Shown here piece by piece: positions 23,612-53,592 of a DNA stretch of 64,000 nt; position 1 is the first letter of the stretch, and the number at the start of each line of letters is the position of its first letter. The notes below the pieces were generated by a model, which saw only the letters and a list, made by a program, of their open reading frames with translations, ran no database searches and was not told the DNA's origin. The stretch is taken from NCBI GenBank assembly GCA_034168985.1, contig JAXFJE010000009.1:14816-78815 (forward strand), written 5' to 3'. Source of the stretch: Erysipelotrichaceae bacterium. Its GTDB lineage: Bacteria; Bacillota_I; Bacilli_A; Erysipelotrichales; Erysipelotrichaceae. The translations under genes were made by a program, and so were the position numbers.

Positions 23612-23620
23612 ACAAAATAG

Positions 23621-24025: not shown

Positions 24026-24248
24026 TTCAAGATTATCTTGGATCTTTTTTTGTTAATGATATTTTATACCGTCTAAATAAAAAAATAAAATATAAAGCAT
24101 TTATGAATATTTTTTGAAAACCGTACATAATTTATCTATAAGTTAAAACATATTTGTTTATACTTATAGATAATAATTGATTTTATAAGGCAAAAAGTTT
24201 ATTATATCTATAAGTACAAACGTTATTGATCGTAGATGGAGATAGAAT

Positions 24249-25517
24249 ATGATTAGTCGAGATTTTTATTTAGAAGAAATTAAATCTAGTATGTGGGATG
24301 GACAAGTAAAAGTGATAACAGGTCTTAGAAGATGTGGAAAATCAGTTCTTTTATTTGAATTATTTAAAGATTATCTTATATCAACAGGAGTATCAGACGA
24401 AAATATTATTACTATTTCATTGGATCAAAGAAAATATTATAAATATCGTAATCCTATTCTTTTGTGCGATTATGTTGAATCAATCATAACAGATGATGCC
24501 AGTAAGTATTATGTGTTTATTGATGAAATTCAAATGAGCATGAAAACTGTTGACAAAGAAAATGGCGATATTGAAGTAACTGTTTATGATATGCTAAATG
24601 AATTGAAATCATATAAAAATCTAGATGTGTATGTAACAGGTTCAAATTCTAGAATGTTAGCAACTGATATCTTAACTGAATTTAGAGGGCGATCAACTCA
24701 AATTCATGTTTATCCTCTATCTTTTGAAGAATATTACTCATATAGAGGTGGAGATGAAAGAAAATGTTTAGAAGAATATATGCTTTATGGAGGAATGCCA
24801 AGGTTAACGCAATTAAAAGATGATAACGCTAAGAAAAAATATTTGTTATCACTTTATGAAGAAGTTTATATTAAAGATATTAAGGAAAGAAATGGTATAG
24901 AAAGAGAAGATATATTAGAAGAAATCCTTGATTACTTATCTTCACAAATCTCATCTTTAACAAATCCTACAAAAGTTGCAAATGCAATTTCTAATGAGAA
25001 GAAAGAAAAAATAGATAATATTCTTGTTAGTCATTATATCAAGCATTCTGTTAATGCTTTTTTGATTTTAATAGCAAAAAGATATGATATAAAAGGAAAA
25101 TCATATTTTAAATATCCGAATAAATATTATTTTACAGATGTTGGACTTAGAAATGCTAGACTTAATTTTAGACAATTTGATCCTGGCCATTTAATGGAAA
25201 ATATCATATATATTGAGTTGATCAGAAGAGGTTACGCAGTTGATGTAGGAGTTGTATATGATCGGGCAAATGGGACTACAGCTGTAAAAGAAGTAGACTT
25301 TGTGGTAAATGATGGTGATAAAAGAATATATATTCAATCAGCATTAAGAATGGATGAAGAAAAAATAAATTCTGAATTGAATTCATTGAAACTAACGAAT
25401 GACTTCTTTAAAAAAATTATCATTAGAAATGATATATCTCATAATTATTATGATAATCATGGAATTTATCATTGCAGTTTAATTGACTTCTTGCTAAACA
25501 GAGTTGAGATCTTTTAA
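24249..25517 (+). CDS. AAA ATPase with DUF4143-type C-terminal domain (second paralog)
   Basis: Walker A GLRRCGKSVL, Walker B VFIDEIQM, YVTGSNSRML. Collinear with the 18657-19844 product. Confidence 0.7.
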   Translation: MISRDFYLEEIKSSMWDGQVKVITGLRRCGKSVLLFELFKDYLISTGVSDENIITISLDQRKYYKYRNPILLCDYVESIITDDASKYYVFIDEIQMSMKTVDKENGDIEVTVYDMLNELKSYKNLDVYVTGSNSRMLATDILTEFRGRSTQIHVYPLSFEEYYSYRGGDERKCLEEYMLYGGMPRLTQLKDDNAKKKYLLSLYEEVYIKDIKERNGIEREDILEEILDYLSSQISSLTNPTKVANAISNEKKEKIDNILVSHYIKHSVNAFLILIAKRYDIKGKSYFKYPNKYYFTDVGLRNARLNFRQFDPGHLMENIIYIELIRRGYAVDVGVVYDRANGTTAVKEVDFVVNDGDKRIYIQSALRMDEEKINSELNSLKLTNDFFKKIIIRNDISHNYYDNHGIYHCSLIDFLLNRVEIF

Positions 25518-25633
25518 AACTCCTACAAAAAGCTATTCTTATTAAAGAATAGTAATATGTTGTAATAAAATGTTTTGGCAATGCAACACATATGAAACAG
25601 AACCACTCTAAAATCCTTATTTTATTGTATTTA

Positions 25634-25664
25634 GGAGTTCTCAAAACGTTAATCAATTTTATCG
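25634..25664 (+). repeat. rpsI 3'-end repeat, copy C (most degenerate)
   Basis: GGAGtTCTCAAAACGTTAATC then AATTttATCG. It matches copy B with a 12-nt internal deletion. Confidence 0.6.
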
Positions 25665-25762
25665 TCAAGAGATTACGAAGATCACTCATTTATTTGGGTG
25701 GTCTTTTTTCTTATGTTTTAATATATTTTTATAAGGGTAAAATATGGGATGCTTATAAAGCA

Positions 25763-25808
25763 TTGACAACTATCTTTGTCACGGAATATAATCTTTATGA
25801 CAAAGATA
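25763..25808 (+). promoter_or_regulatory. Promoter with flanking palindrome (probable Xre operator)
   Basis: TTGACA at 25763-25768 and TATAAT at 25787-25792. Perfect arms TATCTTTGTCA (25771-25781) / TGACAAAGATA (25798-25808) bracket the -10. Confidence 0.5.
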
Positions 25809-25850
25809 ATTGTTATAAAGTTAACTTTATTTGTCAATATCGGAGGTACT

Positions 25851-26069
25851 ATGGAACTATGTAATCGTGTGAAAGAATTTAGAGCTCGCCTTGATATCAA
25901 TCAACAAGAGCTAGGAAAAATGGTCAATGTTTCACGACAAACGATCAGTTTGATCGAAAGGGGCGACTATAACCCATCGATTTCGCTAGCTTTAAAGATT
26001 GCTAAAGTATTTAATGTATCATGTGACGAGCTATTTTATCTTAAGGAGGAAAATGAAGATGAAAAATAA
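25851..26069 (+). CDS. XRE-family transcriptional regulator
   Basis: Start MELCNRVKEFR with RBS GGAGGT. The HTH reads QQELGKMVNVSRQTISLIERGDYNPS. Confidence 0.8.
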   Translation: MELCNRVKEFRARLDINQQELGKMVNVSRQTISLIERGDYNPSISLALKIAKVFNVSCDELFYLKEENEDEK

Positions 26070-26787
26070 AACTAAATATGTATTGTTCTATGTTACATGT
26101 ATGATGATAGGGGTTGCTTTATACTTTTTAGCTTCTTTTATATCAATGCTAAACATCCAAATCGATCTATCATTTGTTGATGGTATAATGGCTATTTTTT
26201 CAATAATTTTTTCATCTGTTGCGTCATTTGTTGGAGTAGTAATGTACCATAAAGCAAGTAAAATCATAACTAATGGTATTGATGATGAAGATGATTTTAA
26301 TAAAGCTAATCAATTAACCTCAATTGCGAATGCTATGTTGCAATTATCAATGCCGATGATCATTATGGGCATTGCTTTGGTCACAAAATTTGAGGGTGAT
26401 ATTCCGCTGTCGTCTATCATTTTAAGTGGATGGTTATTGTTAGTATTGATCGCCTCGATCGTCTATCTTAAAAAAGTATTTGCTATCATTTCAAAAATAT
26501 ATCCTGAAAAAGGCTTATCATCTGATGATATTTATTTCGAGAATAAATGGTTTGGTTCATGTGATGAATCCGAACGGTTAATGATATATAAAGCTAGTAA
26601 TCAAAGCTTTAAATTCATGAATATAGCTTATTGCGTTACCATATTGGTTTGTATGCTACTTGTTAAAATACATATCATGCCTAGTATTTTAGTGATATTG
26701 ATTTCTATACTTTGGGCATTGCAAATAGCTAGCTACTTTTATAACGCTTATATGCTAGAGCATCATCCACGCAAGATAAAGGTGTAA
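26053..26787 (+). CDS. Polytopic membrane protein partnered with the Xre regulator (DUF3169-like)
   Basis: Overlaps the Xre stop. Has 5-6 predicted TM helices. The start is ATG at 26053 or 26059, after RBS AGGAGG. Confidence 0.55.
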   Translation: MKMKNKTKYVLFYVTCMMIGVALYFLASFISMLNIQIDLSFVDGIMAIFSIIFSSVASFVGVVMYHKASKIITNGIDDEDDFNKANQLTSIANAMLQLSMPMIIMGIALVTKFEGDIPLSSIILSGWLLLVLIASIVYLKKVFAIISKIYPEKGLSSDDIYFENKWFGSCDESERLMIYKASNQSFKFMNIAYCVTILVCMLLVKIHIMPSILVILISILWALQIASYFYNAYMLEHHPRKIKV

Positions 26788-27251
26788 AATGTCAATTTTC
26801 TTTACTTAGCTGTAGATACTATGGTGAGGAATATAGCTTTTATGTGCGATTCGAGCTTAATGATATAACGAAAAAAAGGATCTTAGATCCTTTTTTTGTG
26901 CATTTAAGGTGTTTAAAGAAAGTGCAGCTTTGATAGGTTGTTTTAAATTAAAAAGTTATGTTTCGTGGTTAGAAAAAATATCATTATTAGCAATTAGCTT
27001 GGCATATCTAAGTGCTTCTTTTAGGTATGCAATAAAAATTTAATGATGCAAGAATAAAGCGTTAAATTTAAGTTATCATCTAGTGATAGAAAAGACTAAT
27101 CGACATATATGATTTTGATCGATAGTATAAGGTGATAAAAATTGGACAAATTGAACTAAATGTCCTAAATAAGAACAAATCTGTCATTATGTCGAATGCA
27201 AATAATTTAAACAATTGCTATGATGTTATCACTGCAAAGGAGAAAGACCAT

Positions 27252-27917
27252 ATGGATGCTAATAACTCGCAAGAATTACAAAAATATCTCTTAGAACACC
27301 AAGATAATCTAGTGACGCACATTATTCAATTTAATCAGCTGATGAGAAAATATGAGGCTGCAATCAAAGAAATAACAACGAAGTTAGAGATATTGAAAAG
27401 TGATTTTTTAACTAATAATAATCGTAAAAGTATTGAAACCATCCAATCGCGGATCAAAAAGCCTTATAGCATTTTGCATAAATTAAATAAAAAACATGTC
27501 GATATCAATTTGGAAACGATACAAACCCAGTTAAATGATGTGGCAGGGATTAGGGTAATATGTCCATTTATTGATGATATATATTTAGTTGCGGAAAAAT
27601 TAGCCAAACAAGATGATATTACGGTTATTCAAGTGAAAGATTATATCAATGCTCCCAAAGAAAATGGTTATCGTAGTTATCATATGATCGTTGAAGTTCC
27701 TGTATTCTTTTTGAATAAAAAAGAACCGATGCGTGTAGAAATACAGCTTAGAACAGTAGCAATGGACTTTTGGGCCAGCTTAGAGCATGAAATCAAATAT
27801 AAGAAAAAGATCAAGGATGAAGAATATTTGCAAAACGAACTTAAACAATGTGCAGATAGCATCGCTCAAGCTGATCAAAAAATGTTAGAGTTGCGAAAAT
27901 ATGTGCACGGTTCTTAG
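27252..27917 (+). CDS. Small alarmone synthetase (RelA/SpoT-domain GTP pyrophosphokinase, RelQ/RelP type)
   Basis: Start at MDANN after RBS AAGGAG. DVAGIRVICPF, NGYRSYHMIV and EIQLRTVAMDFWASLEH are synthetase motifs. Confidence 0.8.
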   Translation: MDANNSQELQKYLLEHQDNLVTHIIQFNQLMRKYEAAIKEITTKLEILKSDFLTNNNRKSIETIQSRIKKPYSILHKLNKKHVDINLETIQTQLNDVAGIRVICPFIDDIYLVAEKLAKQDDITVIQVKDYINAPKENGYRSYHMIVEVPVFFLNKKEPMRVEIQLRTVAMDFWASLEHEIKYKKKIKDEEYLQNELKQCADSIAQADQKMLELRKYVHGS

Positions 27918-27924
27918 CAATTGA

Positions 27925-28485
27925 TTATTTGTTAGTAGCAATGATGGTGTTGAAAATATCACCAGAGAGCAAATCTTCTAGTATTTGGATCGCTGCTTGA
28001 GGGTCAGTTTGCATGCCGTTTTTAGCCCAATTGGCTATCACACCGGTTAAACCAAAAGCATAGAAGTTGGCAATTATTTGTATTTGGTTTGAATCTAAGA
28101 TCTTGTCGGCATGCGCATTGATTAATAAGTCTTTGACCAGATTTACATAAAAATCCATTAGGCATTCTGTAAAGCTATTTTGTCCTTGAAGATTTAAGAC
28201 CTTAATATAAAAAGCTTTATTATCTTGAAGATAATGACATAAAGATAATAAGGATGCGCTCCAGTTATCGATTGCGTGATTTTCACCTATGATCGGGGTA
28301 ATTTCAGAATAAAAGATCCAGTTTATGACATCGTACTTATCTTTAAAGTGATAATAAAAGGTATTGCGTGCAATCTCACAATAATTAATGATATCTTTGA
28401 CGGTTATTTTTTCGATGTCCATGGTTTGTACTAGGTGTTTGGTTCCTTGAGCGATCATTTGTTTGGTAAAACTAGAACTAGACAT
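27925..28485 (-). CDS. TetR-family transcriptional regulator
   Basis: ITVKDIINYCEIARNTFYYHFKDKYD is a TetR HTH. Confidence 0.8.
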   Translation of the reverse strand: MSSSSFTKQMIAQGTKHLVQTMDIEKITVKDIINYCEIARNTFYYHFKDKYDVINWIFYSEITPIIGENHAIDNWSASLLSLCHYLQDNKAFYIKVLNLQGQNSFTECLMDFYVNLVKDLLINAHADKILDSNQIQIIANFYAFGLTGVIANWAKNGMQTDPQAAIQILEDLLSGDIFNTIIATNK

Positions 28486-34638: not shown

Positions 34639-35136
34639 ATGAATTTTAATGATAAAGATATTTTACAATTTAAAGAATTGTTACAAACGACAACGTTACA
34701 ACAAGGCTATCAAAAACTACAAACCTTATTGAATCAGTTAAAAATAGATGTTGCGAAAAAATATCCCACATTTAAGGTGCAAAACACGGTCATGGAAAAT
34801 AAGATGGATTATGCTTATTTTCAATTGCAAGATCAAGCTTTGAAAGATCATGGTTTAAAATTAGCCATTATTTTTGATTATCAGCGTTTCAGCATGAAAG
34901 TTTGGATCTCAGGAGCTAATCGTCAAGTCCAAACACATTACCATCAATTCCTACTAGCGCAAAAAGATCAGTCTTTAGTTTTATCTAACGATCCTAAGCG
35001 TCAAGATTTTATTGTTAGCTATGATCTAAATATCAGTGGTACCTATGAAGATATCTTGTTAGATATAACTAGGGTCATAGATCTTGCTTATCAGCAAGCG
35101 ATCCTATGGCCTTGCATCCAAGTTGGCAAAATATAA
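34639..35136 (+). CDS. Hypothetical cytoplasmic protein
   Basis: 165 aa. RBS GGAG upstream. No motif recognised. Confidence 0.4.
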   Translation: MNFNDKDILQFKELLQTTTLQQGYQKLQTLLNQLKIDVAKKYPTFKVQNTVMENKMDYAYFQLQDQALKDHGLKLAIIFDYQRFSMKVWISGANRQVQTHYHQFLLAQKDQSLVLSNDPKRQDFIVSYDLNISGTYEDILLDITRVIDLAYQQAILWPCIQVGKI

Positions 35137-35138
35137 TT

Positions 35139-35618
35139 ATGCGCAGTGAAGCTGCTTTAAAACAAGCCATTGACAAATACGGGGATATGGTCAAACGTAT
35201 TTGCATGGTTCATTTAAAAAATCATGCTGACATGGAAGATATCTTTCAAAATGTATTTTTGCGTTACTATCAAGATGATACGGATTTTGTTAGTGAGGAG
35301 CATGAAAAAGCATGGATGATCAAAGTGACGATCAATGCATGTAAAGATCTGTTGAAAAGCTTTTTTCATCGTCAGATGGTACCGCTTGATGATTATATCA
35401 ATAGTTATGGTACGACTAATGATGAGCATAAACATGTATTGAGCTGCTTATTGCAGTTGCCACCTAAATATAAGTTGACATTATACTTATATTATTATGA
35501 AGGATATAAGGTAGAAGAAATCGCCAAGATCTTAAAGAAAAAACCGGCATCTATCTATTCACTTTTGCAAAGAGGGCGAATGATGATGAAGGACGTTTTA
35601 AGTGATGAAGAGGTATAA
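35139..35618 (+). CDS. Sigma-70 family (ECF-like) RNA polymerase sigma factor
   Basis: Region 2 reads EDIFQNVFLRYYQ. Region 4 HTH reads YEGYKVEEIAKILKKKPASIYSLLQRGR. The start is uncertain (35106 or 35139). Confidence 0.75.
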   Translation: MRSEAALKQAIDKYGDMVKRICMVHLKNHADMEDIFQNVFLRYYQDDTDFVSEEHEKAWMIKVTINACKDLLKSFFHRQMVPLDDYINSYGTTNDEHKHVLSCLLQLPPKYKLTLYLYYYEGYKVEEIAKILKKKPASIYSLLQRGRMMMKDVLSDEEV

Positions 35619-35639
35619 ATAGAAAAGAAGGTAAAAATA

Positions 35640-36503
35640 TTGAATATTAATTTTTTTGATCGTAAAAAAATATGTTTGTTGGTTAGCATCGTCGTTATGG
35701 GCATGAGCTTAGGGGCTTTTTTTGATTATGGTTTATCGCAAAATTTATATCAACAACAAAGCCGCTTTGCCTTATTTTTTGCTGCATATGGCCAGTTACC
35801 ATTTAATATCGGATTTGCGATGTGCGGTACGATGATGTTGATGATTGCCAACAATTATGCGCTGCCTAAACGCAGGATCATTCAAGCTTTAGGTTTGATC
35901 TTAAATTTGACCTGTTTTTTGATTGGGACGATATCACCTACGAAGTTTTTAGCTGAATATAATATCGTGATCTTGATGATCCAAAATGTGGCCTTATTGT
36001 TGATCGTGGATTGTTTGGTCTATCAATATTTGAAAGATGTGGAAGTTAAGAAGCTAGAAAGTTATATCAAATTTGTATTCATCGTCTTGGTTGGTCAGTT
36101 GATCTTGGTCAATGTCCTTAAATTATGGTGGGGTCGCCCTAGGATGCGGATGATCGTGGCTAATGATGATGCTTATTTTTTACCATGGTTTCGCTTTGAT
36201 CATAGCTTGCGGACATTATTGCTTGTCAAAGGTATCCCGTTGGAAGAATTTAAATCATTTCCAAGTGGCCATACGGCGTGTGCTAGCTGCATCTTGATCT
36301 ATGCGCTATTGCCATTGTTGAAAAGCGATGATAATAAGCACTTGGCGAATGGCTTATTTGCGCTAGGAATGGTATATATCGTGATTGTTGCGTTATCGCG
36401 AATTGTTGCAGGTGCACATTTTTTAAGTGATGTGACGGGTGGTTTTGCATGTTGTATCTTGATCATCTATGTTGCATATCGTTATAGTTTTGAAACAAAG
36501 TAA
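35640..36503 (+). CDS. PAP2-family membrane phosphatase
   Basis: TTG start. KSFPSGHTACAS and SRIVAGAHFLSDV are PAP2 motifs C2/C3. Confidence 0.75.
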   Translation: MNINFFDRKKICLLVSIVVMGMSLGAFFDYGLSQNLYQQQSRFALFFAAYGQLPFNIGFAMCGTMMLMIANNYALPKRRIIQALGLILNLTCFLIGTISPTKFLAEYNIVILMIQNVALLLIVDCLVYQYLKDVEVKKLESYIKFVFIVLVGQLILVNVLKLWWGRPRMRMIVANDDAYFLPWFRFDHSLRTLLLVKGIPLEEFKSFPSGHTACASCILIYALLPLLKSDDNKHLANGLFALGMVYIVIVALSRIVAGAHFLSDVTGGFACCILIIYVAYRYSFETK

Positions 36504-36549: not shown

Positions 36550-37239
36550 ATGAATAGATTTAATCATCATAAGGTAATGTATAGCATTATCATCTTTTTT
36601 AGCTGTCAGGTCTTATCGCTTATGATCATTTTCTATCCTGATCGCTATCCATCGTTACAATGGGTCTTCATAGGGGCTTTGATCGTTTTGGCTTGTTCGA
36701 TCATCAGTGATTTTTGTGCCTTTGCGATCATTAGAAAATTGGAGCGCCAATTAGATGAAGAAGTACAGATCAAAAAGATGATCAAACTAAATACCTATAA
36801 TGATGATTTTTTTGATTTTGCAGCAATGCAACAACGTAATATTCGCTTTTTTTATCATGATCTCAGTAATCATATCATTACCTTGGATATCTTGAAAAAG
36901 CAAGGTAAGACCGCGGAGATCGCGGCATATAATCAAAAACTGAAAGAACGTTATGAAAATGTTTTGCCAATGATCAAGACCGGTAATTACTTTTTAGATA
37001 TCATTGGTCAATATTGTTATGAAGAACATAAGTGCTTGTTACGCTTTGAAGGTGCGGTGAAAAATGAACAATATAAGCAGCTTCTGTGGTTTATCCAAAA
37101 GATCATGCCGTATTGTGAAAATAATGAAGTACAAGTGATCATTAAAGATGATGGTGAGGTTACATTTATAATGCCAATCGTCAATGAGACGATCAAACAA
37201 GATGCCTTGATGTGTGGCTATGAGGTTCATCAGGCATGA
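36550..37239 (+). CDS. Truncated AgrC/HPK10-like sensor: 2 TM + H-box, no ATP-binding G-boxes
   Basis: 229 aa. FFYHDLSNHI is an H-box (His103, nt 36856-36858). KTGNYFLDIIGQY follows. The protein ends before any DxGxG/GxGxG motif. Confidence 0.55.
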   Translation: MNRFNHHKVMYSIIIFFSCQVLSLMIIFYPDRYPSLQWVFIGALIVLACSIISDFCAFAIIRKLERQLDEEVQIKKMIKLNTYNDDFFDFAAMQQRNIRFFYHDLSNHIITLDILKKQGKTAEIAAYNQKLKERYENVLPMIKTGNYFLDIIGQYCYEEHKCLLRFEGAVKNEQYKQLLWFIQKIMPYCENNEVQVIIKDDGEVTFIMPIVNETIKQDALMCGYEVHQA

Positions 37240-38480
37240 ACGTATTTTATATCAACAGTATCTTATTAGCTTTTATGATAGCTTATTATTTCAATGAGAT
37301 GATGCCTAGCACGCGAAAATGGCGGGATTATTGCATGCTAGTGGGCTTTTATATTGTTCATATGATCATCGTTACGATGATATTAGATCGACCAGGTGGC
37401 CAGCATGATCAGCCTTTTGTAAGATTGATTCTTGCGTCAGCGTTAATGATCGCATTCTTAAAGTGGTTAAAGAAGGTTAGCTGGTTAGAAGCGATCTTTT
37501 GGCATTGTGGTTATTTGTTGATGGCTATAGCTTGCGAGATCAGTGCCATGGTCATTACGATGTTTTTGGTGAATTTTGATATGGCTGTTTTTTTTGCACA
37601 GATTAATCAGAATTTCTATACTTTTTTGATTAGTGATATGCTATCATTCTTGGCAATATATTTTGCCGTATATTTTCGTAATCGCTGGCGTCGTAAATAT
37701 GAAAAACTAACTTTATTGATCATTTTTCTTTCTTATCAATTCATGATGTTATATCTATCATCTTTTAAGATGAACGTAGGTTGGCAAGCTAGTGGCATCG
37801 TTTTTATTAGTTTTATCTTTTTGCTGGTAATTGTGGATAGTGTGGCTTTTTATTTGATCAAAGAGATTTATTATCATATGAAAGATGATAAATATTCGCA
37901 GATGGAAGCAATGCTTAGCCAGCAAATGCAAGCTCAATTTGATCGCTTGTTTGAAAAACAACAAGTGTTGGAAGAAATATATGATGAAATACTGGGAAAT
38001 TCTACGGATATCCTTAAATTAGAAGCTTATCGTAACGAACTTAAAGAAATCCATAATCATTTTTATTGTGAACACGCCCCGGTAAATGCAATGTTAGATT
38101 ATTATGATGCTTTATGTGATGAACATGGTATTGCCTTTGAGGTCAATTTTAAAGGTGCTTTGCCTAAAGCTATCGATGTTTTTGATCTTAATACGTTGTT
38201 GATCAATTGTTTACAAAACGCTATGGATGAAGTTGTGGGGAGCGATAAGGGCTGGATCAAGCTTGAGGTTGCCTGCAAAGATATGATGTTATTTTTACAA
38301 TGCACAAACAGTTTGAACCATGATCAAAAACCTAAGAAGGTTAAAAAGATTGCGGGAAATGGCAAGTATATCGTGAAAAATATCGTAGCGAAATATGGAG
38401 GATATTATGCATTTGATATCTTAGCGGATCAAGCAAAGGTCACGATCAATCTTACGTTAAAAGGAGCAAATAGCCAATGA
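37236..38480 (+). CDS. AgrC/HPK10-like membrane GHKL protein lacking the phospho-acceptor His
   Basis: 414 aa with about 6 TM helices. N-box LINCLQNAMDE and G-box AGNGKYIVKNIVAKYGG. The position aligned to the paralog's RH reads QA (Ala233, nt 37932-37934). Confidence 0.6.
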   Translation: MNVFYINSILLAFMIAYYFNEMMPSTRKWRDYCMLVGFYIVHMIIVTMILDRPGGQHDQPFVRLILASALMIAFLKWLKKVSWLEAIFWHCGYLLMAIACEISAMVITMFLVNFDMAVFFAQINQNFYTFLISDMLSFLAIYFAVYFRNRWRRKYEKLTLLIIFLSYQFMMLYLSSFKMNVGWQASGIVFISFIFLLVIVDSVAFYLIKEIYYHMKDDKYSQMEAMLSQQMQAQFDRLFEKQQVLEEIYDEILGNSTDILKLEAYRNELKEIHNHFYCEHAPVNAMLDYYDALCDEHGIAFEVNFKGALPKAIDVFDLNTLLINCLQNAMDEVVGSDKGWIKLEVACKDMMLFLQCTNSLNHDQKPKKVKKIAGNGKYIVKNIVAKYGGYYAFDILADQAKVTINLTLKGANSQ

Positions 38481-39721
38481 GAGTATATATTTTAAATCAA
38501 TTTATCCTTATGGCATTATGGGCCTATTATTTTAATGAAGCTTTGCCTATTAGAAAGAGCTGGCCAAAGGATCTTGTTTACTTATACATTGGGTTTTTGA
38601 TCCATTCCATGACTTCGATTTGGTTATTTGGTCATCCTGGTGGGCCAAGAGATCTTCCATATCTGCGTATGCTTGTTAGTTTAAGTACTGAGATATTATT
38701 GTTGCTTATCATCAAAAGGTCGCCAATGAAAAAAGTATTTATTAGCTGTTGGTGGCAGCTAGTGTTTGCTTCCTTATCTGAGCTTTTGGCGATGTGTATC
38801 GTACTGGTGCTTAATGGATTTGATACTACAAATTTTGCGACAACCATCAATGTTGAGCTATCCACTAGTTTGTTCAATGATCTTTTCTTTATTATCCAGG
38901 TATATATTTATTTAAAATTCATTCGTAAAAAAGCTCCTAATCGGGAAAAAGATAGCTTTGTCATCTTTTTGGTTTTATTAACATATCAGTTTATGCAGAT
39001 ATATATGATCTTATATCGGATCGTAGATATTCCAATTCCCCACTTTAACCTATTGATGATCAATATGATCATCGTAGTAGCCGTTGTAGATGTTGTGACG
39101 ATGGTGGTGGTGATCAAGATATATCGCAGCATGAAAAAAGAAAAATATTTAATGATGGAACAAAACGTTGAACAACAAATGCGTCATCAATTTGAACAAT
39201 TATTAGATAAGCAACAAACGATGGAAGAAATTTATCAAGAAATCGTTAAAAGTGAGGATTTGCTCGTTCATGATCTGGAATATTATAGTCAAGAATTACA
39301 TGATATTCGTAATAAATTATATTGTGATAATCCAGCTATCAATGCCATGATCAATTACTTTGCAGATTTATTCGCTAACGAATGGATCGCCTTTAAGGTT
39401 GATATCAATGGGAGTTTTCAAGATATCGAAGCTTTTTTTGATATTAATGCTTTATTGACCAACTGTTTGCAAAATGCTTATGATGAATGTCGAGGCAATG
39501 ATAAGATGTGGGTAGAACTAGCAATGGTTCTTAAAGAACGGGTCTTGATCGTTCAATGTCGAAATAGTTTAAATGATCATAAGCTAGCAAACAATAAAAA
39601 AATCTCAGGTCAAGGCAGCAAGATCATCAAAGAGATTACGGATAAATACCGTGGCTATGCTGATTTTATGATCGATGGTGATATCGCGTGTTGGCTGATC
39701 AATATTACCTTGCCTATATAA
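38477..39721 (+). CDS. AgrC/HPK10-like sensor histidine kinase
   Basis: 414 aa and collinear with the previous gene. Candidate H-box QQMRHQFEQLL (His237, nt 39185-39187). N-box NCLQNAYDE and G-box SGQGSKIIKEITDKYRG. Confidence 0.65.
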   Translation: MRVYILNQFILMALWAYYFNEALPIRKSWPKDLVYLYIGFLIHSMTSIWLFGHPGGPRDLPYLRMLVSLSTEILLLLIIKRSPMKKVFISCWWQLVFASLSELLAMCIVLVLNGFDTTNFATTINVELSTSLFNDLFFIIQVYIYLKFIRKKAPNREKDSFVIFLVLLTYQFMQIYMILYRIVDIPIPHFNLLMINMIIVVAVVDVVTMVVVIKIYRSMKKEKYLMMEQNVEQQMRHQFEQLLDKQQTMEEIYQEIVKSEDLLVHDLEYYSQELHDIRNKLYCDNPAINAMINYFADLFANEWIAFKVDINGSFQDIEAFFDINALLTNCLQNAYDECRGNDKMWVELAMVLKERVLIVQCRNSLNDHKLANNKKISGQGSKIIKEITDKYRGYADFMIDGDIACWLINITLPI

Positions 39722-39747
39722 AAAATGACCTTTGAAGGTCATTTTTA
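39722..39747. terminator. Bidirectional terminator between kinase and response regulator
   Basis: AAAAATGACCTT-tga-AGGTCATTTTT. Confidence 0.8.
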
Positions 39748-39750
39748 GCA

Positions 39751-40524
39751 TTATTTTTTCAAGAAATGGTTGGTTAGATAGGCATTGACATCATTGCGAT
39801 ATTTCCGTGAAACTGGAATTAACTTTTTATTTATCAATAGGATGTCGTTATTATGGATCTCTTTGATGTAATCGATGTTGACGATATAAGCGCGATGAGT
39901 TTGGATGAAGTTTTCTGGCAAGATAGGTAAATAATCATCAAATGAAGCATAAGTATCTAAAAATAGCTCATTAGGATCATTGATGGTCACTGCCTCTAAA
40001 TTAGGCAGATATTTGGTGATATCTTTACAATAAAACTTGATCTTTCGCAGCGATTTTTCCATATAGACGATATCTGAAATAGCGACGATGGTGTGTTTAC
40101 GATTGAATGATATGGATAACGTATGACTGTTATTGTTAAGATCGTTCAATTTTTTCAGCGCTTTGTTGATCGCATTTTTTAGATGAATTTCCATGTCATC
40201 TTTTAAGACATAGTAAATATGGTCATATAAATATGCTTCTTGGAAAAATTGCACGTATGAGGTCAAAAAGATAATTTGGGTTTCTGGTGAAATTGTAGTA
40301 CATTGGCGAGCAAAATATAGACCATTACGATGTTCATTTTCATATTTGATATCTAAGATCAAAATGTTGAAATTGTTTTTGATAACTTGATCTTCTAGTT
40401 TTGATAAGCTATCAAAGGTTGTAATTTGATAATCTATTGTCTTAGCTGCCATTAACGAATTTACAAACGCGGTTGCGGCTTGTAATTGATAAGTGTTATC
40501 ATCACAAATGGCAATGTTGATCAT
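39751..40524 (-). CDS. LytTR-family response regulator
   Basis: Receiver domain (MINIAICDD, ILILDI). C-terminal LytTR domain (ISDIVYMEKSLRKIKFY ... QTHRAYIVNIDYI). Confidence 0.8.
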   Translation of the reverse strand: MINIAICDDNTYQLQAATAFVNSLMAAKTIDYQITTFDSLSKLEDQVIKNNFNILILDIKYENEHRNGLYFARQCTTISPETQIIFLTSYVQFFQEAYLYDHIYYVLKDDMEIHLKNAINKALKKLNDLNNNSHTLSISFNRKHTIVAISDIVYMEKSLRKIKFYCKDITKYLPNLEAVTINDPNELFLDTYASFDDYLPILPENFIQTHRAYIVNIDYIKEIHNNDILLINKKLIPVSRKYRNDVNAYLTNHFLKK

Positions 40525-40742
40525 AAAAGCTTCCCCCTTAAGCTATATTTTAAGAATATTTTAATATAATTTAGGGGCTTATGGCTAACAGATGTAATAA
40601 AATACAGAATATACGTAATAAAAAACAATGTGATTATCATACAATAATATGACTGCTACAAAAAACTTACTTACATGTAGCCAAGATAAGTATTATAATG
40701 GTTACAACAAGAAAAAAAGATAGATAATACGGAGGAAAGAGA

Positions 40743-46701: not shown

Positions 46702-49700
46702 TTAATCCTCACCCATTTTTCTTATTCTTGTTATTTTTTTCTTTTTGTTAATGACAATTTTTTGATTGGTTTTTTGGTTTTTAACGATCTTATCATTATC
46801 ATTGACGATATCGATGGTTTCACAAGCGTTACCGATGATATAACCTAAAGGAGAATGAATTTCACATACTTTTAATTTACTACCATAGGTTAGATCTTTG
46901 ATAGTGAATGCGCCATGCTTGATAGTAAAGTTTTCAGCTTTATCAAGATAGTGTAATTGATAATCAGCTTCAGGCAAGCCATAGACGATGATTTCTCCTT
47001 TATCATTAGTGTTGGCTCGTAAAACAACTTTACCAGTTTTGTCCATTACTTCATAAGGTTCGCTGATCATTGGAACATCGATATAAGTATATGTTTGACC
47101 TGCAAATACATAATAGCGCTTATGATTGCTTAAGTTGGTTATTTCCATGTTCAAGATCTTTTCGTTAAAATCTTGATTAGCTATGTAGGTTTCTATAGGG
47201 CCTTCAAAGATGATCTTGCCGTCGATCGTGTCGCTAGCGTTTTGTAAACTGATCTTATCGTTAGCTATGTCATTATTAACAACTTTATAGCTGATGCCTT
47301 TGATGGTGATGATATCGTTTGGTTTTAGGTTTTGAATATTAGGGATATCTTCATATCGTAGGCCTTGATAATCAGTGGTTATAGAAGTAATGACGTATTT
47401 TTCATCAACAAGAGCTTGGATCATCGGCGCTTTGGCAGCTGTTTTATGAAGGTGTAAAATCTTAGGTTGTTGGTTAAAACTTTGATATTTTAAGCTGATC
47501 TTTTGTTCGTCCCGATATATCAAGGTAAAATCTACATGGTTAAATTTAAAGATATCATCTATTTTTAGATCGTTAGGAATATCTTGGAAGCTAGGAGCTT
47601 GGATACAACTTAAAGTTGGAAAGGTGAATTGATAATTTATTTTTGGCTTTTGGACCATAGTAAGGATATCCTGCATGATAAAAGGCTCGGCTGGCAAAGA
47701 AGTGGTTAACTGGCGATAGATACCGCCTGATACAAAGGTTCCAATTGCTTTAGCGGGTTTTATTTGAGGCATAGTGATGATATCGTTTTTTACTTCGATG
47801 ACCATATGGTTATTATCATTGATATTGATCAGTTTATAACCCATGATGGTATTAGCGCTAGTATCATCGCTGGTGGTTGGTTGCCAAATAGCTGGATCTT
47901 GGGCGTAAATGATATCGATGATCTGATAGGTTTGGATATTGCCATCTTGTTTATCAAAAGCTTTAAAGCGAGCTTTTGGCGCAATTTTAGGGCAATTTTT
48001 CAAGATATCTTGATAGGTCAATGGAACATTATGGTTGATGTTATTTTTGTCTACATGATATTCCATTTGATCATCTAGACATTTGACTAAAATATGATCA
48101 TTTTCGATAGCTAAGATTTCGTAAGTGAATTGGACGGAATGATCATCAGGCCATACGCTAAATTGTTGATTTATCTTTAGGTCAGCAGGGATATCTTGGA
48201 ATGTTATCTTATAAGGAAAAGTAGATAAATGATCTTTGGATACATCGTGACCTTCATCGCTAACATCCATGACCGTAAAAATTGCGCCATTTAAAAGCTT
48301 GGTTTGATCATCTTGATCGACCTTGACCACTTCTAGATCAAGCTTACGTTTGGTATTTAGGACATTTTCATATGTAACGTTGATTTTTTCGGCGTATTTG
48401 CTATCAAAGCTGAAGCAGATGTCCTTAGCATCTAGCTGATTTGCATCACGAAAATCATATCCTAATGGTAGTTGAGTTTCACATGCGAGATACTTACGCC
48501 CCCATTTTAGATCTTGGATATTTACTTGACCATCAATTTGAGGGTGGTCATATACCGTGAATTCTTTTAGGATCAAACTGTTAGGTTGGTTATAAAAATA
48601 TGTGCCCGGTGATAGATCGTCGACATCAAACATGCCCCAATGATCGCTGTAGCCTTTTTTGATGACGTTAGTGCCGGCAGGGTCGCTGTAGATGGTCACA
48701 GGATAAAAAGGTTGCGAATGCTGGTGATTGCTTGGGTCAGTAATACGCAGTTGATTTTTTCCGGTCTTACCTTTGAATAAAGGTAAAGTGGTTAGCTTTT
48801 TGATCGAAGCTAGTTGTTGATTACTGGTGGTGAAGTTAATGATTTGATAGATGCTATGCTCTTTAGGATCTGTTTTTAGTTGCTTATTAGTTATTAGATA
48901 GTATTGTTTGTTACCATCTTGATCTTTGCAGCTTACCTTAAAATCTTTGGTACCATCGCTATTGATGATTATCTTCTCGATAGTATATTTGATGCCATTG
49001 ACCTTGAAGCTGTCATGAAGATCGCTATGGATCGGAGGGATATCGTTTTTAGAAATAGGTGATGGAATTGGAAGATAGTAGCGATTGATCTTGGTGGTAT
49101 CTAGAGCGTTAGGACAGGTGATGATCAAGGCTTCGTCCACATCGTCATTTTGTAGGATATCCGCAACGGTATAGGTGCGTTTTTTATTGGTGAAAGTATC
49201 GTTGATCTTCGGTTTGCTTCCTAATTGTTTGATGATCTGTTCATAAGTTATGCCATTTGCACCATGGCCATAGTGAATGTTGATATCAAATGTTTTCATG
49301 CTGTCAACCTTGATGATATGATTATCGATCAAAACACTTGGATCATCACAAGTTAAATAATAATGCTCGCTATTTGGTAAAAAAGCAGATAGATCATAAG
49401 TTTTTTGGGTGTTTATGAAATATTTATCGTAGGTTACATAATCATCGATAGGATTACTAGGGTAGTTTATTTCCAATGTTTCTTTGGAGCTTAGGTTTTG
49501 AATGGTCATGCTATGTTGATTAAGCTTGTTTATAACATATGGATCATCTTCAAAGATAAAACGCGTATTTTCTTGTGGTAGCTTGAAAGCAAATAGTTTG
49601 ATGATATCTTGGTATCTGATGCTTGTTGGTTTGCTTACTTTGATCAGCTCGCTGTCGGTAGTTGTTGGTTTTGATGGCTTGTTTGTTAAGTGATAGCGAT

Positions 49701-52700
49701 AATAGTGATAAGTATTTCCTTTGCTATCTTGGATGATGGTAGCTTTTTCTTGGTTGATATCATCTTTTTTGATGATGTAAGTTTCATCATCAACCTGTAT
49801 TTTGGAGTGGGTCTTAAATAAGTCGAGAATTTCTTGGTAGCTAAAAGGAGCATTGTCTTCTAAAGCAAAGCCTACGATAATATCGTTGTCGTTGCTTTTG
49901 CTTAATATCGTGTATTTTTTATTGTTGATGGTAATATCATCGCCTTTGACTAAAGGTCGTTGGTAGTCAAGGGTTAGCTGATCGTTGATGCACCATGGCT
50001 TTTGTTGGGTCTTTTCTAGTTGGGATACTTGATCATATGATATGACATCATATTTGCTGGTAGCTTGCGGGTCTAAAAAGAAAATCTGCCCATTTTCGTT
50101 TTTGATGACGATGTTTTGTAAATCGGGATAATTGCTGATAACGGTAAAGCTTTGCTCATCGATCGTAAAGGTATCATTAGGTTTTAGCTTGTGGATATTT
50201 GGAATCTGATCATATGTTATGTTTAAAGCGTACTGTAGATCTTGACCCTGTTTAAGCTGGAAAGTTATTTCGGGTAAGACAATATGATCGTTAAATTTAG
50301 ATGCTTGCCATTTTACGATATATTCTTTAGGGGTTATTGCTTGGATCGTAAAGCTTTTGCTTAAGACCTTTTTTTCTTGATAAGTAGTTATCGTTTGGTC
50401 TTTATAGAGCGTGATCTCGATAATTTGCTCATCGATGGATGTTGCAACTTTGAGATGATCGGCTTCTTGTGAGGCAAGGGGTTCAATGATTTGATAGCTT
50501 TGTTCATCGAGGTTGATCGTTTCGCCCTTTGCGTATTGTGCTAATGGCTTGCCGCTTGCTAAGGCGGCTTGAGCTAGATCGTTGAACTGGGCTAGTTCAT
50601 AGGGCTTGTCGATGATCTTGGTATAGCGATGTTCACGTGTCGTATGTAGCGGGCAAGCGAAGATATCATCGGGTTGTTGACAATAGATATTAGGATCTTG
50701 GGTTAGATTGTTGGTTAATTGCCAATAATTGATGATGCTGTTGTCGCTTGTTGGTTCTAATTTTTGATCGTTGAAGATGTAATTGCCATCTACGGTGATT
50801 TGATATTGGTTGCCACTTTCATCACTAACTAGATATTTAGGCGCAATGATATCCACAATGCTAAAGCTTTCTTTAGATGTGATCGTTTGCGGGAAATCTT
50901 CTAATTTGATAGGTTCCAATACCTTGATGATAAAGTTATCGTTTACAGCTGTTTGTAAGCTAATTTCATCGATCTGGTTTGCACTATCACGATGTTTAGC
51001 TAAGATGGTATAAGTTTGATCGTTGATCGTAATCGCGGTATTTAAAGGAATGCTTTCAAGATCTTGATCTTTCAAGTTATCTTTGATCCAAGCTTTTACC
51101 ATTGCTAAGTTAAGATCAAGTGAATCATTGGTGACGATGACCTTTTGCAAATAGCTACCTTCTACCATCAATTGGTGGGGATTACGCTTTACAATGACAT
51201 ATTTATCATCATTGATTTCAAAATTTTTACTTGCTTCGTCTTTGATATCATTAGGTAATTGTTCCCAGCTTAATTGTTGGTAAGGGTTAGCAAGCGTATA
51301 GGTGGTAGCAGGATATACTTCTAGATACTTAAATTTCCCCTTATCATAAACAGCTTGTTTGACAGTATAGCTTTTTTGGGCAAATTCAAGGTGGCTATTT
51401 GGTGATAATTGAGGATAAGGGATATTTGTTAACTGTAATGTTTGGGTTGTATCGGTATGCTTGAAAGTAACGGTGTTAGGAGTAACTTTGATGATTTCGT
51501 ATTCTTTGATCCCATTGTTATCGATGGTGAACTTATCGTGAGGTTTAGGGTCGGTTGGTAATTGGTCGAAGGTTATAGGAGCAACAGTGTTGTAATCGTC
51601 ATATCTTTGGGGCAATAACCAAATTGCATCATGTTCGATCTTTTTGATCGTATAGCGATAGCCCTCTAGAAAAAAGCTTTTATCAACAGCTGGTTCAGGA
51701 ATAGCTGCTAATAATTGGTTGTATGTCAGCTTAGGTTTGGTTTCTAAATGGTCTAGCGATAAAGGGCCCAATAAGGTGGGGCTAGGATCAAGCTCTAGAT
51801 CAGCAATTTCGTAAACTTCAAAAGTTGCATCGTTGAGTTTTAAATATGGATCATCACTAGCTGTTTTAACGATGGATAGATCGATATCGCGCAGCTGATT
51901 AACAAATTGTTGGCTTGCAGTGCTATTTTGGTTTTTGGTACTAACTAGAAATGGTCTAGCATCGATTTTATAAGGGTTAGATACTTTCCATTCCATGATC
52001 CACCAATTCTTATTTGGTGGTAATAAGTTATCGATATGAGCTTTGCCATCATTACCAACCTCAAAGACGCGAATGTTTGTGTTATCTGGTTCCATGATAG
52101 GGTAGAAACTCTTTTTACCATCTACATAGTTAAAACCACCGTATAGATCGGGTTTGATACCGACATTGAAATTATAGATGTCTTCCCAGTTACGATCTTT
52201 GTTGCCATCAAAACGATATTGATGGGTAGGATCTTCTTGCCAACCAATGACAAATTGCGTGCCGGCACTGAAGTTTTGGCTGTGATAATATTCATCTAAC
52301 TTATCAATTTCAATGTTGGCGGTTTTTAATTTAAAAGCGAGACTATAGGAAGGGGTTGGATTTTCAAAAGCGATGCCCATGATCTTTTGACTATCTTCGC
52401 TAGTGTATAAAAGGACATTGTTTAACCAGGATTGGTATTGAGCGTCTTTGCGCTTAAAGGTTAAGGTCTTGCCTTTAGGGCTATCATAGCCTTCATAGTA
52501 AAGGTCATCGATGTCGATCTTTAACTGATTGCCTTCTTGCTTGATGTTGATTCCTTTATGACTTTCGTTGGGGAAAGGCTCAAACCAATCGATAACAGGA
52601 CTTCCAGGATGAAATAAGTTGGTTGAGCCATCATCTGTTAAGATCAAGGTTTCGTTCCAATCTAGTTCGTAGCTAAGCGTATCATGCCATTGGCTAGCAA

Positions 52701-53592
52701 AACTGGGAGTCGTATCATAATTGTGCACAAGATTCATGATGTGATCCATCGTTGCGCTAACATCGACCATGCCACTAACGCTGGCGCATACTTGATCTTT
52801 GTTGGTGCACCATTGCAAAGAAGCCATGATTTCTTGATATTCTTGCGGACAGATGTGTTGCCAGATCAAAAGTTGGGTCGCTAAATAAGTTTCATCGGTG
52901 CTGCCTGTTAAAGGGTGGCCATAACCATAATGAATGATACGTCCCACTTTATTTAAGGTTTCAGGGTCAAGGTCGCTAGGCTTGATGGTGTATTGTGGAC
53001 CGTTGCCATTGCCATCCAAGATAACAAGGACATAAGGTTCGATACAATAACCGATCTTACCATCTAATAAAAATTTTGAAACATATTCATATCCTTGTTT
53101 AGGGTTGTTATAACGAGCGATCCTTTTTTCTCTTTTTAAAGGTATGGTATCAGCAAAGGTTGTGGCTGGAAGCAAATTGATGGTTCCAAAATCAAAGATG
53201 GTATATTTAAGTTGGCGGTATTGGTAGTTGCCAACCACATCATCAATAAAAAACTTGTGATCGATCTTTAAGCTCTCCTTGGGAGGGCTAGTTTGTATGG
53301 GCGAAGAGGTTGGCGGCAAAGGTGAAGATGTGTTATCTGGAGTAGGGGTGGGTTCATTTGTAGGAGCGATGCTAGGATCGTTAGTTGGTAAGGCTGTTGG
53401 GGTGTTTGTGGGGATGGTAGTAGCAGTAGGTAAAGGTGTTGAAGTGGGTTCAATAGGAATGGTTGATGGTTCGCTGGTATTGGTGGGCTCAGGGGTTTCT
53501 GTAGATATAGGGGTTGTGGGTAGTGGCTGATTTGCGAAAACTAGTTGGATGTTGCATAAGATGGTCAAAAATAGGATGAAGATATTTTTCAT
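46702..53592 (-). CDS. Giant secreted surface protein (2,296 aa): signal peptide, Pro/Thr-rich stalk, thioester (TQXA-type) domain, SpaA/CnaB-like folds, about 19 diverged repeats; no LPXTG-type sorting signal
   Basis: MKNIFILFLTILCNIQLVFA|NQ is the signal peptide. The P/T tract spans aa 22-105. GYCIEP (Cys183, nt 53044-53046) and LATQLLIW (Gln240, nt 52873-52875) fit thioester-domain Cys and TQxA(I/V)W motifs. GAIFTV, LPEADYQL and EIHSPLGY are SpaA-like marks. The C-terminus ..KNQKTNQKIVINKKKKITRIRKMGED has no hydrophobic segment. Confidence 0.8.
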   Translation of the reverse strand: MKNIFILFLTILCNIQLVFANQPLPTTPISTETPEPTNTSEPSTIPIEPTSTPLPTATTIPTNTPTALPTNDPSIAPTNEPTPTPDNTSSPLPPTSSPIQTSPPKESLKIDHKFFIDDVVGNYQYRQLKYTIFDFGTINLLPATTFADTIPLKREKRIARYNNPKQGYEYVSKFLLDGKIGYCIEPYVLVILDGNGNGPQYTIKPSDLDPETLNKVGRIIHYGYGHPLTGSTDETYLATQLLIWQHICPQEYQEIMASLQWCTNKDQVCASVSGMVDVSATMDHIMNLVHNYDTTPSFASQWHDTLSYELDWNETLILTDDGSTNLFHPGSPVIDWFEPFPNESHKGINIKQEGNQLKIDIDDLYYEGYDSPKGKTLTFKRKDAQYQSWLNNVLLYTSEDSQKIMGIAFENPTPSYSLAFKLKTANIEIDKLDEYYHSQNFSAGTQFVIGWQEDPTHQYRFDGNKDRNWEDIYNFNVGIKPDLYGGFNYVDGKKSFYPIMEPDNTNIRVFEVGNDGKAHIDNLLPPNKNWWIMEWKVSNPYKIDARPFLVSTKNQNSTASQQFVNQLRDIDLSIVKTASDDPYLKLNDATFEVYEIADLELDPSPTLLGPLSLDHLETKPKLTYNQLLAAIPEPAVDKSFFLEGYRYTIKKIEHDAIWLLPQRYDDYNTVAPITFDQLPTDPKPHDKFTIDNNGIKEYEIIKVTPNTVTFKHTDTTQTLQLTNIPYPQLSPNSHLEFAQKSYTVKQAVYDKGKFKYLEVYPATTYTLANPYQQLSWEQLPNDIKDEASKNFEINDDKYVIVKRNPHQLMVEGSYLQKVIVTNDSLDLNLAMVKAWIKDNLKDQDLESIPLNTAITINDQTYTILAKHRDSANQIDEISLQTAVNDNFIIKVLEPIKLEDFPQTITSKESFSIVDIIAPKYLVSDESGNQYQITVDGNYIFNDQKLEPTSDNSIINYWQLTNNLTQDPNIYCQQPDDIFACPLHTTREHRYTKIIDKPYELAQFNDLAQAALASGKPLAQYAKGETINLDEQSYQIIEPLASQEADHLKVATSIDEQIIEITLYKDQTITTYQEKKVLSKSFTIQAITPKEYIVKWQASKFNDHIVLPEITFQLKQGQDLQYALNITYDQIPNIHKLKPNDTFTIDEQSFTVISNYPDLQNIVIKNENGQIFFLDPQATSKYDVISYDQVSQLEKTQQKPWCINDQLTLDYQRPLVKGDDITINNKKYTILSKSNDNDIIVGFALEDNAPFSYQEILDLFKTHSKIQVDDETYIIKKDDINQEKATIIQDSKGNTYHYYRYHLTNKPSKPTTTDSELIKVSKPTSIRYQDIIKLFAFKLPQENTRFIFEDDPYVINKLNQHSMTIQNLSSKETLEINYPSNPIDDYVTYDKYFINTQKTYDLSAFLPNSEHYYLTCDDPSVLIDNHIIKVDSMKTFDINIHYGHGANGITYEQIIKQLGSKPKINDTFTNKKRTYTVADILQNDDVDEALIITCPNALDTTKINRYYLPIPSPISKNDIPPIHSDLHDSFKVNGIKYTIEKIIINSDGTKDFKVSCKDQDGNKQYYLITNKQLKTDPKEHSIYQIINFTTSNQQLASIKKLTTLPLFKGKTGKNQLRITDPSNHQHSQPFYPVTIYSDPAGTNVIKKGYSDHWGMFDVDDLSPGTYFYNQPNSLILKEFTVYDHPQIDGQVNIQDLKWGRKYLACETQLPLGYDFRDANQLDAKDICFSFDSKYAEKINVTYENVLNTKRKLDLEVVKVDQDDQTKLLNGAIFTVMDVSDEGHDVSKDHLSTFPYKITFQDIPADLKINQQFSVWPDDHSVQFTYEILAIENDHILVKCLDDQMEYHVDKNNINHNVPLTYQDILKNCPKIAPKARFKAFDKQDGNIQTYQIIDIIYAQDPAIWQPTTSDDTSANTIMGYKLININDNNHMVIEVKNDIITMPQIKPAKAIGTFVSGGIYRQLTTSLPAEPFIMQDILTMVQKPKINYQFTFPTLSCIQAPSFQDIPNDLKIDDIFKFNHVDFTLIYRDEQKISLKYQSFNQQPKILHLHKTAAKAPMIQALVDEKYVITSITTDYQGLRYEDIPNIQNLKPNDIITIKGISYKVVNNDIANDKISLQNASDTIDGKIIFEGPIETYIANQDFNEKILNMEITNLSNHKRYYVFAGQTYTYIDVPMISEPYEVMDKTGKVVLRANTNDKGEIIVYGLPEADYQLHYLDKAENFTIKHGAFTIKDLTYGSKLKVCEIHSPLGYIIGNACETIDIVNDNDKIVKNQKTNQKIVINKKKKITRIRKMGED

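Follow-up and report, generated by a model that had tools for sequence, protein, structure and literature searches.

We propose, with moderate confidence, that a four-gene locus of an uncultured Erysipelotrichaceae bacterium of the pig gut encodes a split, multi-subunit histidine kinase of the AgrC type that signals to one LytTR regulator. The locus lies in a 64,000-nucleotide stretch of DNA (assembly GCA_034168985.1, contig JAXFJE010000009.1, positions 14,816 to 78,815 of the forward strand), which we refer to as the window. It contains genes for a small membrane protein (p1), two large sensor proteins (p2 and p3), and a LytTR-family response regulator. As far as the sequences can tell, the acceptor histidine and the ATPase reside on separate polypeptides, each without the function of the other, and the system is one His carrier with two His-less sensor-ATPases. 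Judged from the alignments described below, p1 retains precisely the part that is gone from p2 and p3. A split kinase is the most economical account of the locus because of what is constrained: an invariant His in p1, intact ATP sites in p2 and p3, and a phosphorylatable Asp in the regulator.

A preliminary description of this DNA, made from the sequence alone, had already suggested that the sensor proteins have complementary defects and might work as a hetero-oligomer on one LytTR regulator. The comparative data strengthen that core idea. However, they do not support the division of labor in which one full kinase is accompanied by two defective paralogues.

The H-box of p1 and the ATPase domains of p2 and p3

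The small protein p1 contains two transmembrane (TM) helices, a full-length DHp hairpin with the motif FFYHDLSNHI, and a degenerate remnant of an ATPase domain. It has no match in Pfam and belongs to no NCBIfam family. As a reference for alignment we used 37 canonical AgrC-type kinases, which have an (R/I/Q)HDxxNH box 84-90 residues ahead of the N box. The p1 family profile is clearly related to these kinases (hhalign probability 99%, E 8e-18, 178 columns; HMMER E 8.6e-18), and the alignment runs without gaps through the last two TM helices and the whole DHp to the start of the N-box helix, where it ends. Both hhalign and HMMER place His103 of p1 on the canonical His, and hhalign places a TGN motif of p1 on the conserved C-D/E-N that opens the ATP-binding catalytic (CA) domain. 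His103, next to the acidic residue Asp104, is therefore the proposed phospho-acceptor.

The H-box of p1 reads QQxNIRx[F/Y]YHD[L/I]xxH in every one of 19 distinct homologues, which come from 10 lineages; the residues that never vary are QQ, NIR, Y102, H103, D104 and H108. As the preliminary description had stated, p1 has an H-box and no ATP-lid G box. We found in it no N-box Asn, no G box, no HATPase match, and no conserved residue beyond Q154. Of the features that define HPK10/AgrC-type kinases, p1 thus has the His-Asp pair in a DHp hairpin and lacks the ATP-binding catalytic domain. Because the ungapped homology ends at the N-box helix and conservation does not continue past Gln154, p1 appears to be a kinase homologue cut down to two TM helices, the DHp, and a CA remnant.

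The large proteins p2 and p3 are collinear paralogues (36% identity) with GHKL domains, in agreement with the preliminary description, and no NCBIfam family was found for either. That description had also proposed profile searches with HATPase_c_5 and SPOB_a. Both p2 (E 7.8e-7) and p3 (E 9.4e-6) match HATPase_c_5 above the curated cut-off; p1 gave no match to SPOB_a at E <= 1. The p2 protein combines a multi-TM sensor with a DHp that is shortened and has no His and with a GHKL ATPase that is intact (N box N324/N328, G box G374/G376). Among 30 distinct p2/p3-like proteins, no variation is seen in the ATP-site residues N329, N333, N363, K374, G378, G380 and G393 (p3 numbering). Over their full length, including the TM region, the proteins of the p2/p3 subfamily align with the canonical kinases (hhalign probability 100%, E 7e-54). 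An AlphaFold2 (AF2) model of p3 (pLDDT 79) has seven long TM helices before residue 215, an alpha1, a short alpha2, and a standard CA domain. Its best fold matches in the PDB are the cytoplasmic module of S. aureus AgrC (6E95 and 6E52, E ~5e-9) and, for the CA domain, 4BXI (TM-score 0.71). Searches of PDB sequences with p1, p3 and their profiles gave chance-level matches only. Both large proteins therefore have the polytopic sensor of 6-7 TM helices and the HATPase_c_5 domain with N-box Asn and G box that are expected of an HPK10/AgrC-type kinase, and lack the H-box His and acidic residue in helix 1 of the DHp.

The loop between TM2 and TM3 of p2 and p3 carries the motif PGxxxDxPxxR (residues 54-64; window 38636-38668 in p3), which does not vary among the eight closest p2/p3 sequences. 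With seven TM helices and a cytoplasmic C-terminus, the N-terminus is expected on the outside, in which case the loop would be extracytoplasmic; it is a possible site of ligand contact.

The absence of an acceptor His from p2 and p3 depends on where the H-box position lies. When the p2/p3 subfamily profile is aligned with the 37 canonical kinases by hhalign, the canonical His falls on Gln254 of p3 and the Asp that follows it on Glu255, and deletions of 9 and 4 residues come directly after the H-box position. HMMER with the canonical profile puts the canonical His in a 3-9-residue deletion beside Tyr253 of p3 or Tyr249 of p2. The residue at the canonical position in p2 is Asp250, and the tip of the DHp hairpin in both proteins is 12-13 residues shorter than in canonical kinases. 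In the AF2 model of p3, TM7 runs on as alpha1 to residue 258, four residues past Gln254, and alpha2 spans only residues 264-278 (15 residues). Both alignment methods locate the H-box ~17 residues downstream of His237 of p3, and neither p2 nor p3 of the window has a His there.

Relatives for this comparison, the 37 canonical kinases among them, came from an exhaustive HMMER search (6,650 matches, 14 of them at <=1e-30 and the next at 1e-23), which was used because a word-indexed protein search gave few relatives. The column of the canonical His in the 30 distinct p2/p3-like proteins holds 11 residue types: Q in 10, H in 7, K in 4 and S in 2, with P, T, M, D, N, Y and R as the rest. Since the ATP residues are invariant and the His column is variable in the same proteins, it is the ATP site that is constrained and not the acceptor His.

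Other histidines in the region were considered as acceptors and rejected. His237 of p3 lies in a segment that reads QQIQEQF or QQMQEQF in orthologues at 48% identity; its column in the 30 family members is A in 10 and E in 8, with I, Q, S and others, and His only in the window. Neither His265 nor His275 of p3, as shifted acceptors, is conserved across the subfamily, and the same is true of the His in the 'NHLYC' motif of p2 orthologues, which is conserved among those.

These results bear on two statements of the preliminary description. It held that p2 has no acceptor His, which the Asp at position 250 bears out, although the site to which it assigned the H-box was ~17 residues off. Its statement that p3 keeps both the His and the ATPase does not stand: QQMRHQFEQLL is not the H-box, and the canonical position reads Y253-Q254-E255, with Gln in place of His. 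Because the H-box maps to these residues in p3 and to Asp250 in p2, and because His237 is not conserved, we infer that p2 and p3 are both without an acceptor His in the window.

Conservation of the locus and competing explanations

Genomic contexts of relatives were obtained from look-ups by protein identity and from a metagenome scan with the p1 profile, and all fetched loci were subjected to a census with hidden Markov models. With lineages of p1 defined as having <80% identity to one another (median 31%), there are 10. Wherever the contig permits, the gene order is p1, a p2/p3-like gene, and often a second p2/p3-like gene. The genes are adjacent in all 10 lineages and usually overlap. The trio whose conservation the preliminary description wanted checked is thus recovered in part: p1 is accompanied by a large sensor-ATPase in all 10 lineages, but two (L021 and L023) have a single large gene, so that three genes are not obligatory. 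A regulator with a receiver (REC) domain and a LytTR domain adjoins in 8 of the 10, convergently in seven and on the same strand in L015; none was found adjoining in L022 or in the L024-L028 lineage. The module conserved in other lineages consists of the p1, p2/p3 and regulator genes alone.

All four genes are under purifying selection. Between the L001/L003 and L009/L010 lineages, the ratio of nonsynonymous to synonymous substitutions (dN/dS) is 0.07 for p1, 0.12 for p2, 0.08 for p3 and 0.05-0.07 for the regulator (overall range, 0.05-0.13). The preliminary description had allowed that p1 might be a recent truncation absent from relatives. Its dN/dS of ~0.07, its presence in every related locus, and its invariant H-box argue that it is neither a pseudogene nor a recent truncation.

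The regulator matches Pfam Response_reg (PF00072) and LytTR (PF04397) and has the REC residues D8, D9, the acceptor D58, and the conserved Thr and Lys. With an acceptor Asp in its REC domain and a LytTR DNA-binding domain, it is a LytTR-family response regulator. The same residues are kept in 10 of 11 distinct homologues, and a phosphodonor is therefore expected. The two direct repeats upstream of its gene immediately precede a -35/-10-like pair on the minus strand. They are located between the regulator gene and the neighboring plus-strand gene, which is an aminotransferase gene in the window and a MatE transporter gene in relatives. Both repeat cores are invariant in L001, L003 and L009, despite saturation of the synonymous sites between these genomes and the window. 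The spacing of 21 nt matches that of AgrA and ComE sites. These repeats are candidate LytTR boxes through which the regulator might control its own gene. The exact pattern of 21-nt-spaced repeats occurs once in the window; a search of the window for further copies gave chance-level matches only, at <=3 mismatches, and no regulon was defined. In more distant loci, no comparable repeats were seen ahead of the regulator genes; the one 21-nt-spaced pair there, in L029, is unrelated.

A mechanism can be postulated from these features. p1 would join p2, p3 or both in the membrane through the homologous pair of TM helices and the DHp helices. A signal sensed by the sensor domain of p2 or p3 would then place the ATPase domain of that protein on His103 of p1, which would be phosphorylated in trans, and the phosphoryl group would pass from p1 to Asp58 of the regulator. 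p1 might also act as a phosphatase by means of its HDxxN motif. The truncated DHp tip of p2 and p3 points to p1, rather than to either of them, as the docking site of the regulator. DNA targets of the regulator would be the 21-nt-spaced repeats ahead of its own gene and further sites. Two paralogous sensors could provide two inputs that converge on one His carrier. Such a system likely originated when an ancestral AgrC-type kinase gene was duplicated and the copies lost complementary functions.

Several observations weigh against a split kinase, or against parts of the argument for it. Seven of the 30 p2/p3-like proteins (those of the p3 orthologue in L009/L010 and of paralogue 1 in L024-L028) have His-Glu at the canonical position, so some relatives could autophosphorylate and loss of the His is not universal. 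The L024-L028 lineage has no adjoining REC-LytTR regulator and has a LytTR protein without REC instead. In the regulator of L015 (L015:3319-4080), Asn replaces the acceptor Asp (LLLNLK) and the conserved Thr is also gone, and for these reasons it resembles a pseudo-receiver. The placement of the gap at the H-box differs by 1-3 residues between hhalign and HMMER. Finally, the AF2 model of p1, made from a two-sequence alignment, is poor (pLDDT 64), and Foldseek with this model found no fold match, with nothing below E 0.28; consequently, the evidence that the C-terminus of p1 is a CA remnant is the hhalign alignment and the order of secondary-structure elements only. The His-Glu proteins, the REC-less LytTR protein and the regulator with Asn leave room for models with pseudokinases or modulators.

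Two observations on the L024-L028 lineage can be added here. In L027 (L027:8437-10370), and also in L024 and L026, the regulator is replaced by a 470-aa membrane protein without a Pfam match and a 174-aa LytTR protein without a receiver. In this lineage the first large paralogue keeps its His-Glu at the canonical H-box position as 'FHEM'.

The explanation that survives best after a split kinase is that p2 and p3, as pseudokinases or sensors that bind ATP, do not phosphorylate p1 but exert allosteric control on it (for example, on its phosphatase or phosphotransfer activity), with the regulator receiving its phosphate from acetyl phosphate or an unlinked kinase. Signaling without autophosphorylation has precedents among bacterial histidine pseudokinases, DivL being one (10.1101/812529, PMC4211667), and the shortening of the DHp in p2 and p3 is a sign of remodeling. 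In addition, the HDxxN motif of p1 is of a type proposed as a phosphatase marker in HisKA kinases (PMC3591291). However, the catalytic residues of the ATP site are invariant in 30 of 30 proteins, which fits catalysis better than mere nucleotide binding without proving it, the His protein and the ATPase proteins are translationally coupled and inherited together, and no other kinase is conserved in the neighborhoods. We regard this explanation as unlikely.

In a second explanation, p1 acts negatively, as a decoy DHp that sequesters the regulator, removes its phosphate or poisons kinase dimers, and p2 and p3 reach the LytTR protein without phosphorylation, for example by sequestering it at the membrane. 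LytTR regulators without REC that are held by membrane inhibitors are known (the HdrRM/BrsRM type), and the lineage with a REC-less LytTR protein and the regulator with Asn at its acceptor site both speak for a mechanism of this kind. Yet the full set of REC phosphorylation residues is present in the other 10 of 11 regulators, and a decoy does not explain why neither the His-Asp of p1 nor the ATP site of p2 and p3 varies. We therefore consider it quite improbable.

That p3 is a complete AgrC-like kinase, using His237 and its own ATPase, with p1 and p2 as defective paralogues that serve as its modulators or as its substrates in trans-phosphorylation, is hardly credible: the helical region of the window's p3 does contain His237, His265 and His275, and its N and G boxes are intact, but p3 orthologues at 48% identity or further keep none of these histidines, the column of His237 has His in the window only, and the canonical His position, in the H-box 16-17 residues downstream, is Gln.

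The split layout proposed here might extend beyond the subfamily. Of the 56 nearest full-length relatives outside it, 13 are without the H-box His, and we examined the gene context of two of these (P0025 and P0035). P0025 adjoins a 146-aa protein (L031:2328-2768) with two TM helices and the motif RKFYHDLANHI, whose chain stops immediately behind DHp helix 2. The partner of P0035 is a 219-aa protein (L034:2295-2954), encoded downstream of the large gene, with two TM helices and the motif RRLYHDLSNHL. Both small proteins have weak SPOB_a matches, and both loci encode a REC-LytTR regulator. Because of these small H-box partners, the split layout appears to recur with other gene orders and with different degrees of loss of the CA remnant. 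Whether Firmicutes possess a fairly widespread, so far undescribed class of AgrC-type kinases built from several subunits, in which a minimal DHp 'His carrier' anchored in the membrane serves at least one interchangeable His-less sensor-ATPase, seems to us an evenly balanced question. In the literature searched, which did not cover all journals, we found CheA-type split kinases and DivL-like pseudokinases, but no description of AgrC-type kinases that are split or have no His. Split kinases themselves are already known; what would be new is one in the AgrC/HPK10 class with membrane-anchored partners.

Gene layout and neighborhood

The layout given in the preliminary description, with four open reading frames, ATGA overlaps, a convergent LytTR regulator and a shared terminator, was confirmed in its coordinates and in the 11-pair hairpin (Table 1). 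The p1/p2 and p2/p3 junctions are the ATGA overlaps, and each has a Shine-Dalgarno-like box (GAGG or AAGGAG) ~10 nt upstream. On either strand, the hairpin between the convergent genes is read as a hairpin followed by a T run.

Table 1. Positions in the window of the genes, motifs and sites of the p1-p2-p3-regulator locus
Feature	Position	Strand	Description
p1 gene	36550-37239	+	open reading frame, 229 aa
p1 H-box (Q94-H108)	36829-36873	+	QQRNIRFFYHDLSNH; aligned to the canonical H-box, invariant in homologues
p1 His103 codon	36856-36858	+	proposed phospho-acceptor
p2 gene	37236-38480	+	open reading frame, 414 aa
p3 gene	38477-39721	+	open reading frame, 414 aa
p3 His237 codon	39185-39187		rejected as acceptor
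p3 Gln254 codon	39236-39238		position of the canonical His (hhalign)
p3 ATP-binding motifs	39461-39616	+	N box N329-E337 (NCLQNAYDE), N363, K374, G box G378-x-G380; from alignment
Terminator-like hairpin	39721-39746		AAAAATGACCTTTGAAGGTCATTTTT; 11 pairs, flanked by an A run and a T run; between the stop codons of convergent p3 and regulator genes
Regulator gene	39751-40524	-	open reading frame, 257 aa, convergent to p3
-35/-10-like pair	40587..40558	-	
Two direct repeats	40587-40627		GTAAT(A/N)AAA core, 21 nt start to start; upstream of the regulator gene

A Pfam scan of the neighbors in the window identified genes for a HAD hydrolase, a DUF7000 protein, an ECF sigma factor, a PAP2 phosphatase, and an aminotransferase. 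No AgrB-type family was matched among the neighboring genes scanned, in keeping with the earlier remark that no AgrB-like gene is visible. The locus does not have the adjoining AgrB-like and AgrD-like genes of an Agr-type quorum-sensing locus; small open reading frames of >=20 aa in the gap between the regulator and aminotransferase genes were listed only.

The genes for the ECF sigma factor and the PAP2 phosphatase (window 35106-36503) lie upstream of p1, with a gap to p1 of 46 bp. This synteny is limited to close relatives (L001:4415-6033), which carry an extra gene, for an 83-aa FakA-like_M protein, between the two; the window is without it. The sigma factor and PAP2 genes are outside the conserved module.

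The window matches contigs from pig-gut metagenomes and the metagenome-assembled genome (MAG) GCA_022768265.1, and a scan of GTDB representative genomes found one related MAG only. No RNA sequencing runs with the locus were found; the matching runs are all from pig gut and labeled 'DNA?'. Elsewhere in the window, the stretch from 18000 to 28000 has a G+C content of 27-31%, compared to 34-41% in the rest, and may be an acquired island. On the minus strand at 46702-53592 there is an open reading frame of 2,296 aa, followed on the same strand by open reading frames of 237 and 383 aa.

Comparison with known systems

Virulence, competence and bacteriocin production are among the processes governed by histidine kinases of the AgrC/ComD class, which are treated as homodimers of a single polypeptide. 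If the locus encodes a split kinase, it would be a ready-made system in this class in which sensing and ATP hydrolysis could be studied apart from phosphotransfer and phosphatase activity, and it would show how several sensors can feed one phosphodonor. Annotation would also need correction, as many genes of gut Firmicutes called 'sensor histidine kinase' or 'GHKL domain-containing' would be without an acceptor His, and their partner would be an unannotated 'hypothetical protein' of 150-240 aa. A widespread class would allow combinatorial or multi-input sensing, with separable kinase and phosphatase activities, upstream of LytTR regulators. Split kinases, when modeled, are predicted to respond in an ultrasensitive or bistable manner (PMC3591291).

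The closest likeness is to kinases of the AgrC/ComD/PlnB type (HPK10, HATPase_c_5), whose LytTR partners are AgrA and ComE. p2 and p3 share with them the multi-TM sensor, the DHp-CA layout and HATPase_c_5, and p1 resembles them in its RHDxxNH-type H-box and in its TM helices, which correspond to their last two. The partner, too, is alike, being a REC-LytTR regulator with 21-nt-spaced direct repeats upstream. However, the known kinases hold the His and the ATPase on one polypeptide, whereas here they are on separate ones. Moreover, the DHp of p2 and p3 is shorter by 12-13 residues, and there are no AgrB, AgrD or peptide-export genes among the neighbors scanned.

Cooperation between a His-bearing and an ATP-binding protein has precedents. 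CheA3 and CheA4 of Rhodobacter sphaeroides give phosphorylation only when mixed, and the DHp and CA domains of EnvZ are functional when split in vitro (PMC3591291). Like the proteins described here, CheA3/CheA4 and Hik36/Hik43 of Synechocystis have phosphorylatable and kinase domains on separate cooperating proteins, and in both pairs the His-bearing partner is the phosphodonor and phosphatase of the regulator (PMC3591291; PMC7656254). In contrast to the class-I DHp hairpin of the present system, these pairs belong to the CheA class, use an HPt (P1) domain, and are either soluble or associated with clusters. In the present locus, the His carrier and its partner are both integral to the membrane, each His carrier has 1-2 sensor-ATPase paralogues, and the genes are translationally coupled.

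Spo0B of Bacillus subtilis has a His-bearing helical hairpin and an alpha/beta domain that resembles the ATPase domain of kinases and does not bind ATP. It is soluble and receives its phosphate from the receiver protein Spo0F in a relay. The likeness of p1 to Spo0B is one of architecture only, although distant analogues of p1 do have the weak SPOB_a matches mentioned above. p1 itself has no such match at E <= 1, and it differs in that no intermediate, stand-alone receiver is encoded at its locus.

DivL acts by protein-protein signaling with an unlinked kinase. p2 and p3 resemble pseudokinases of the DivL type in that they have a kinase fold, have lost the acceptor His, and are still under selection (10.1101/812529). 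They differ from DivL in having a dedicated His carrier encoded in the same operon.

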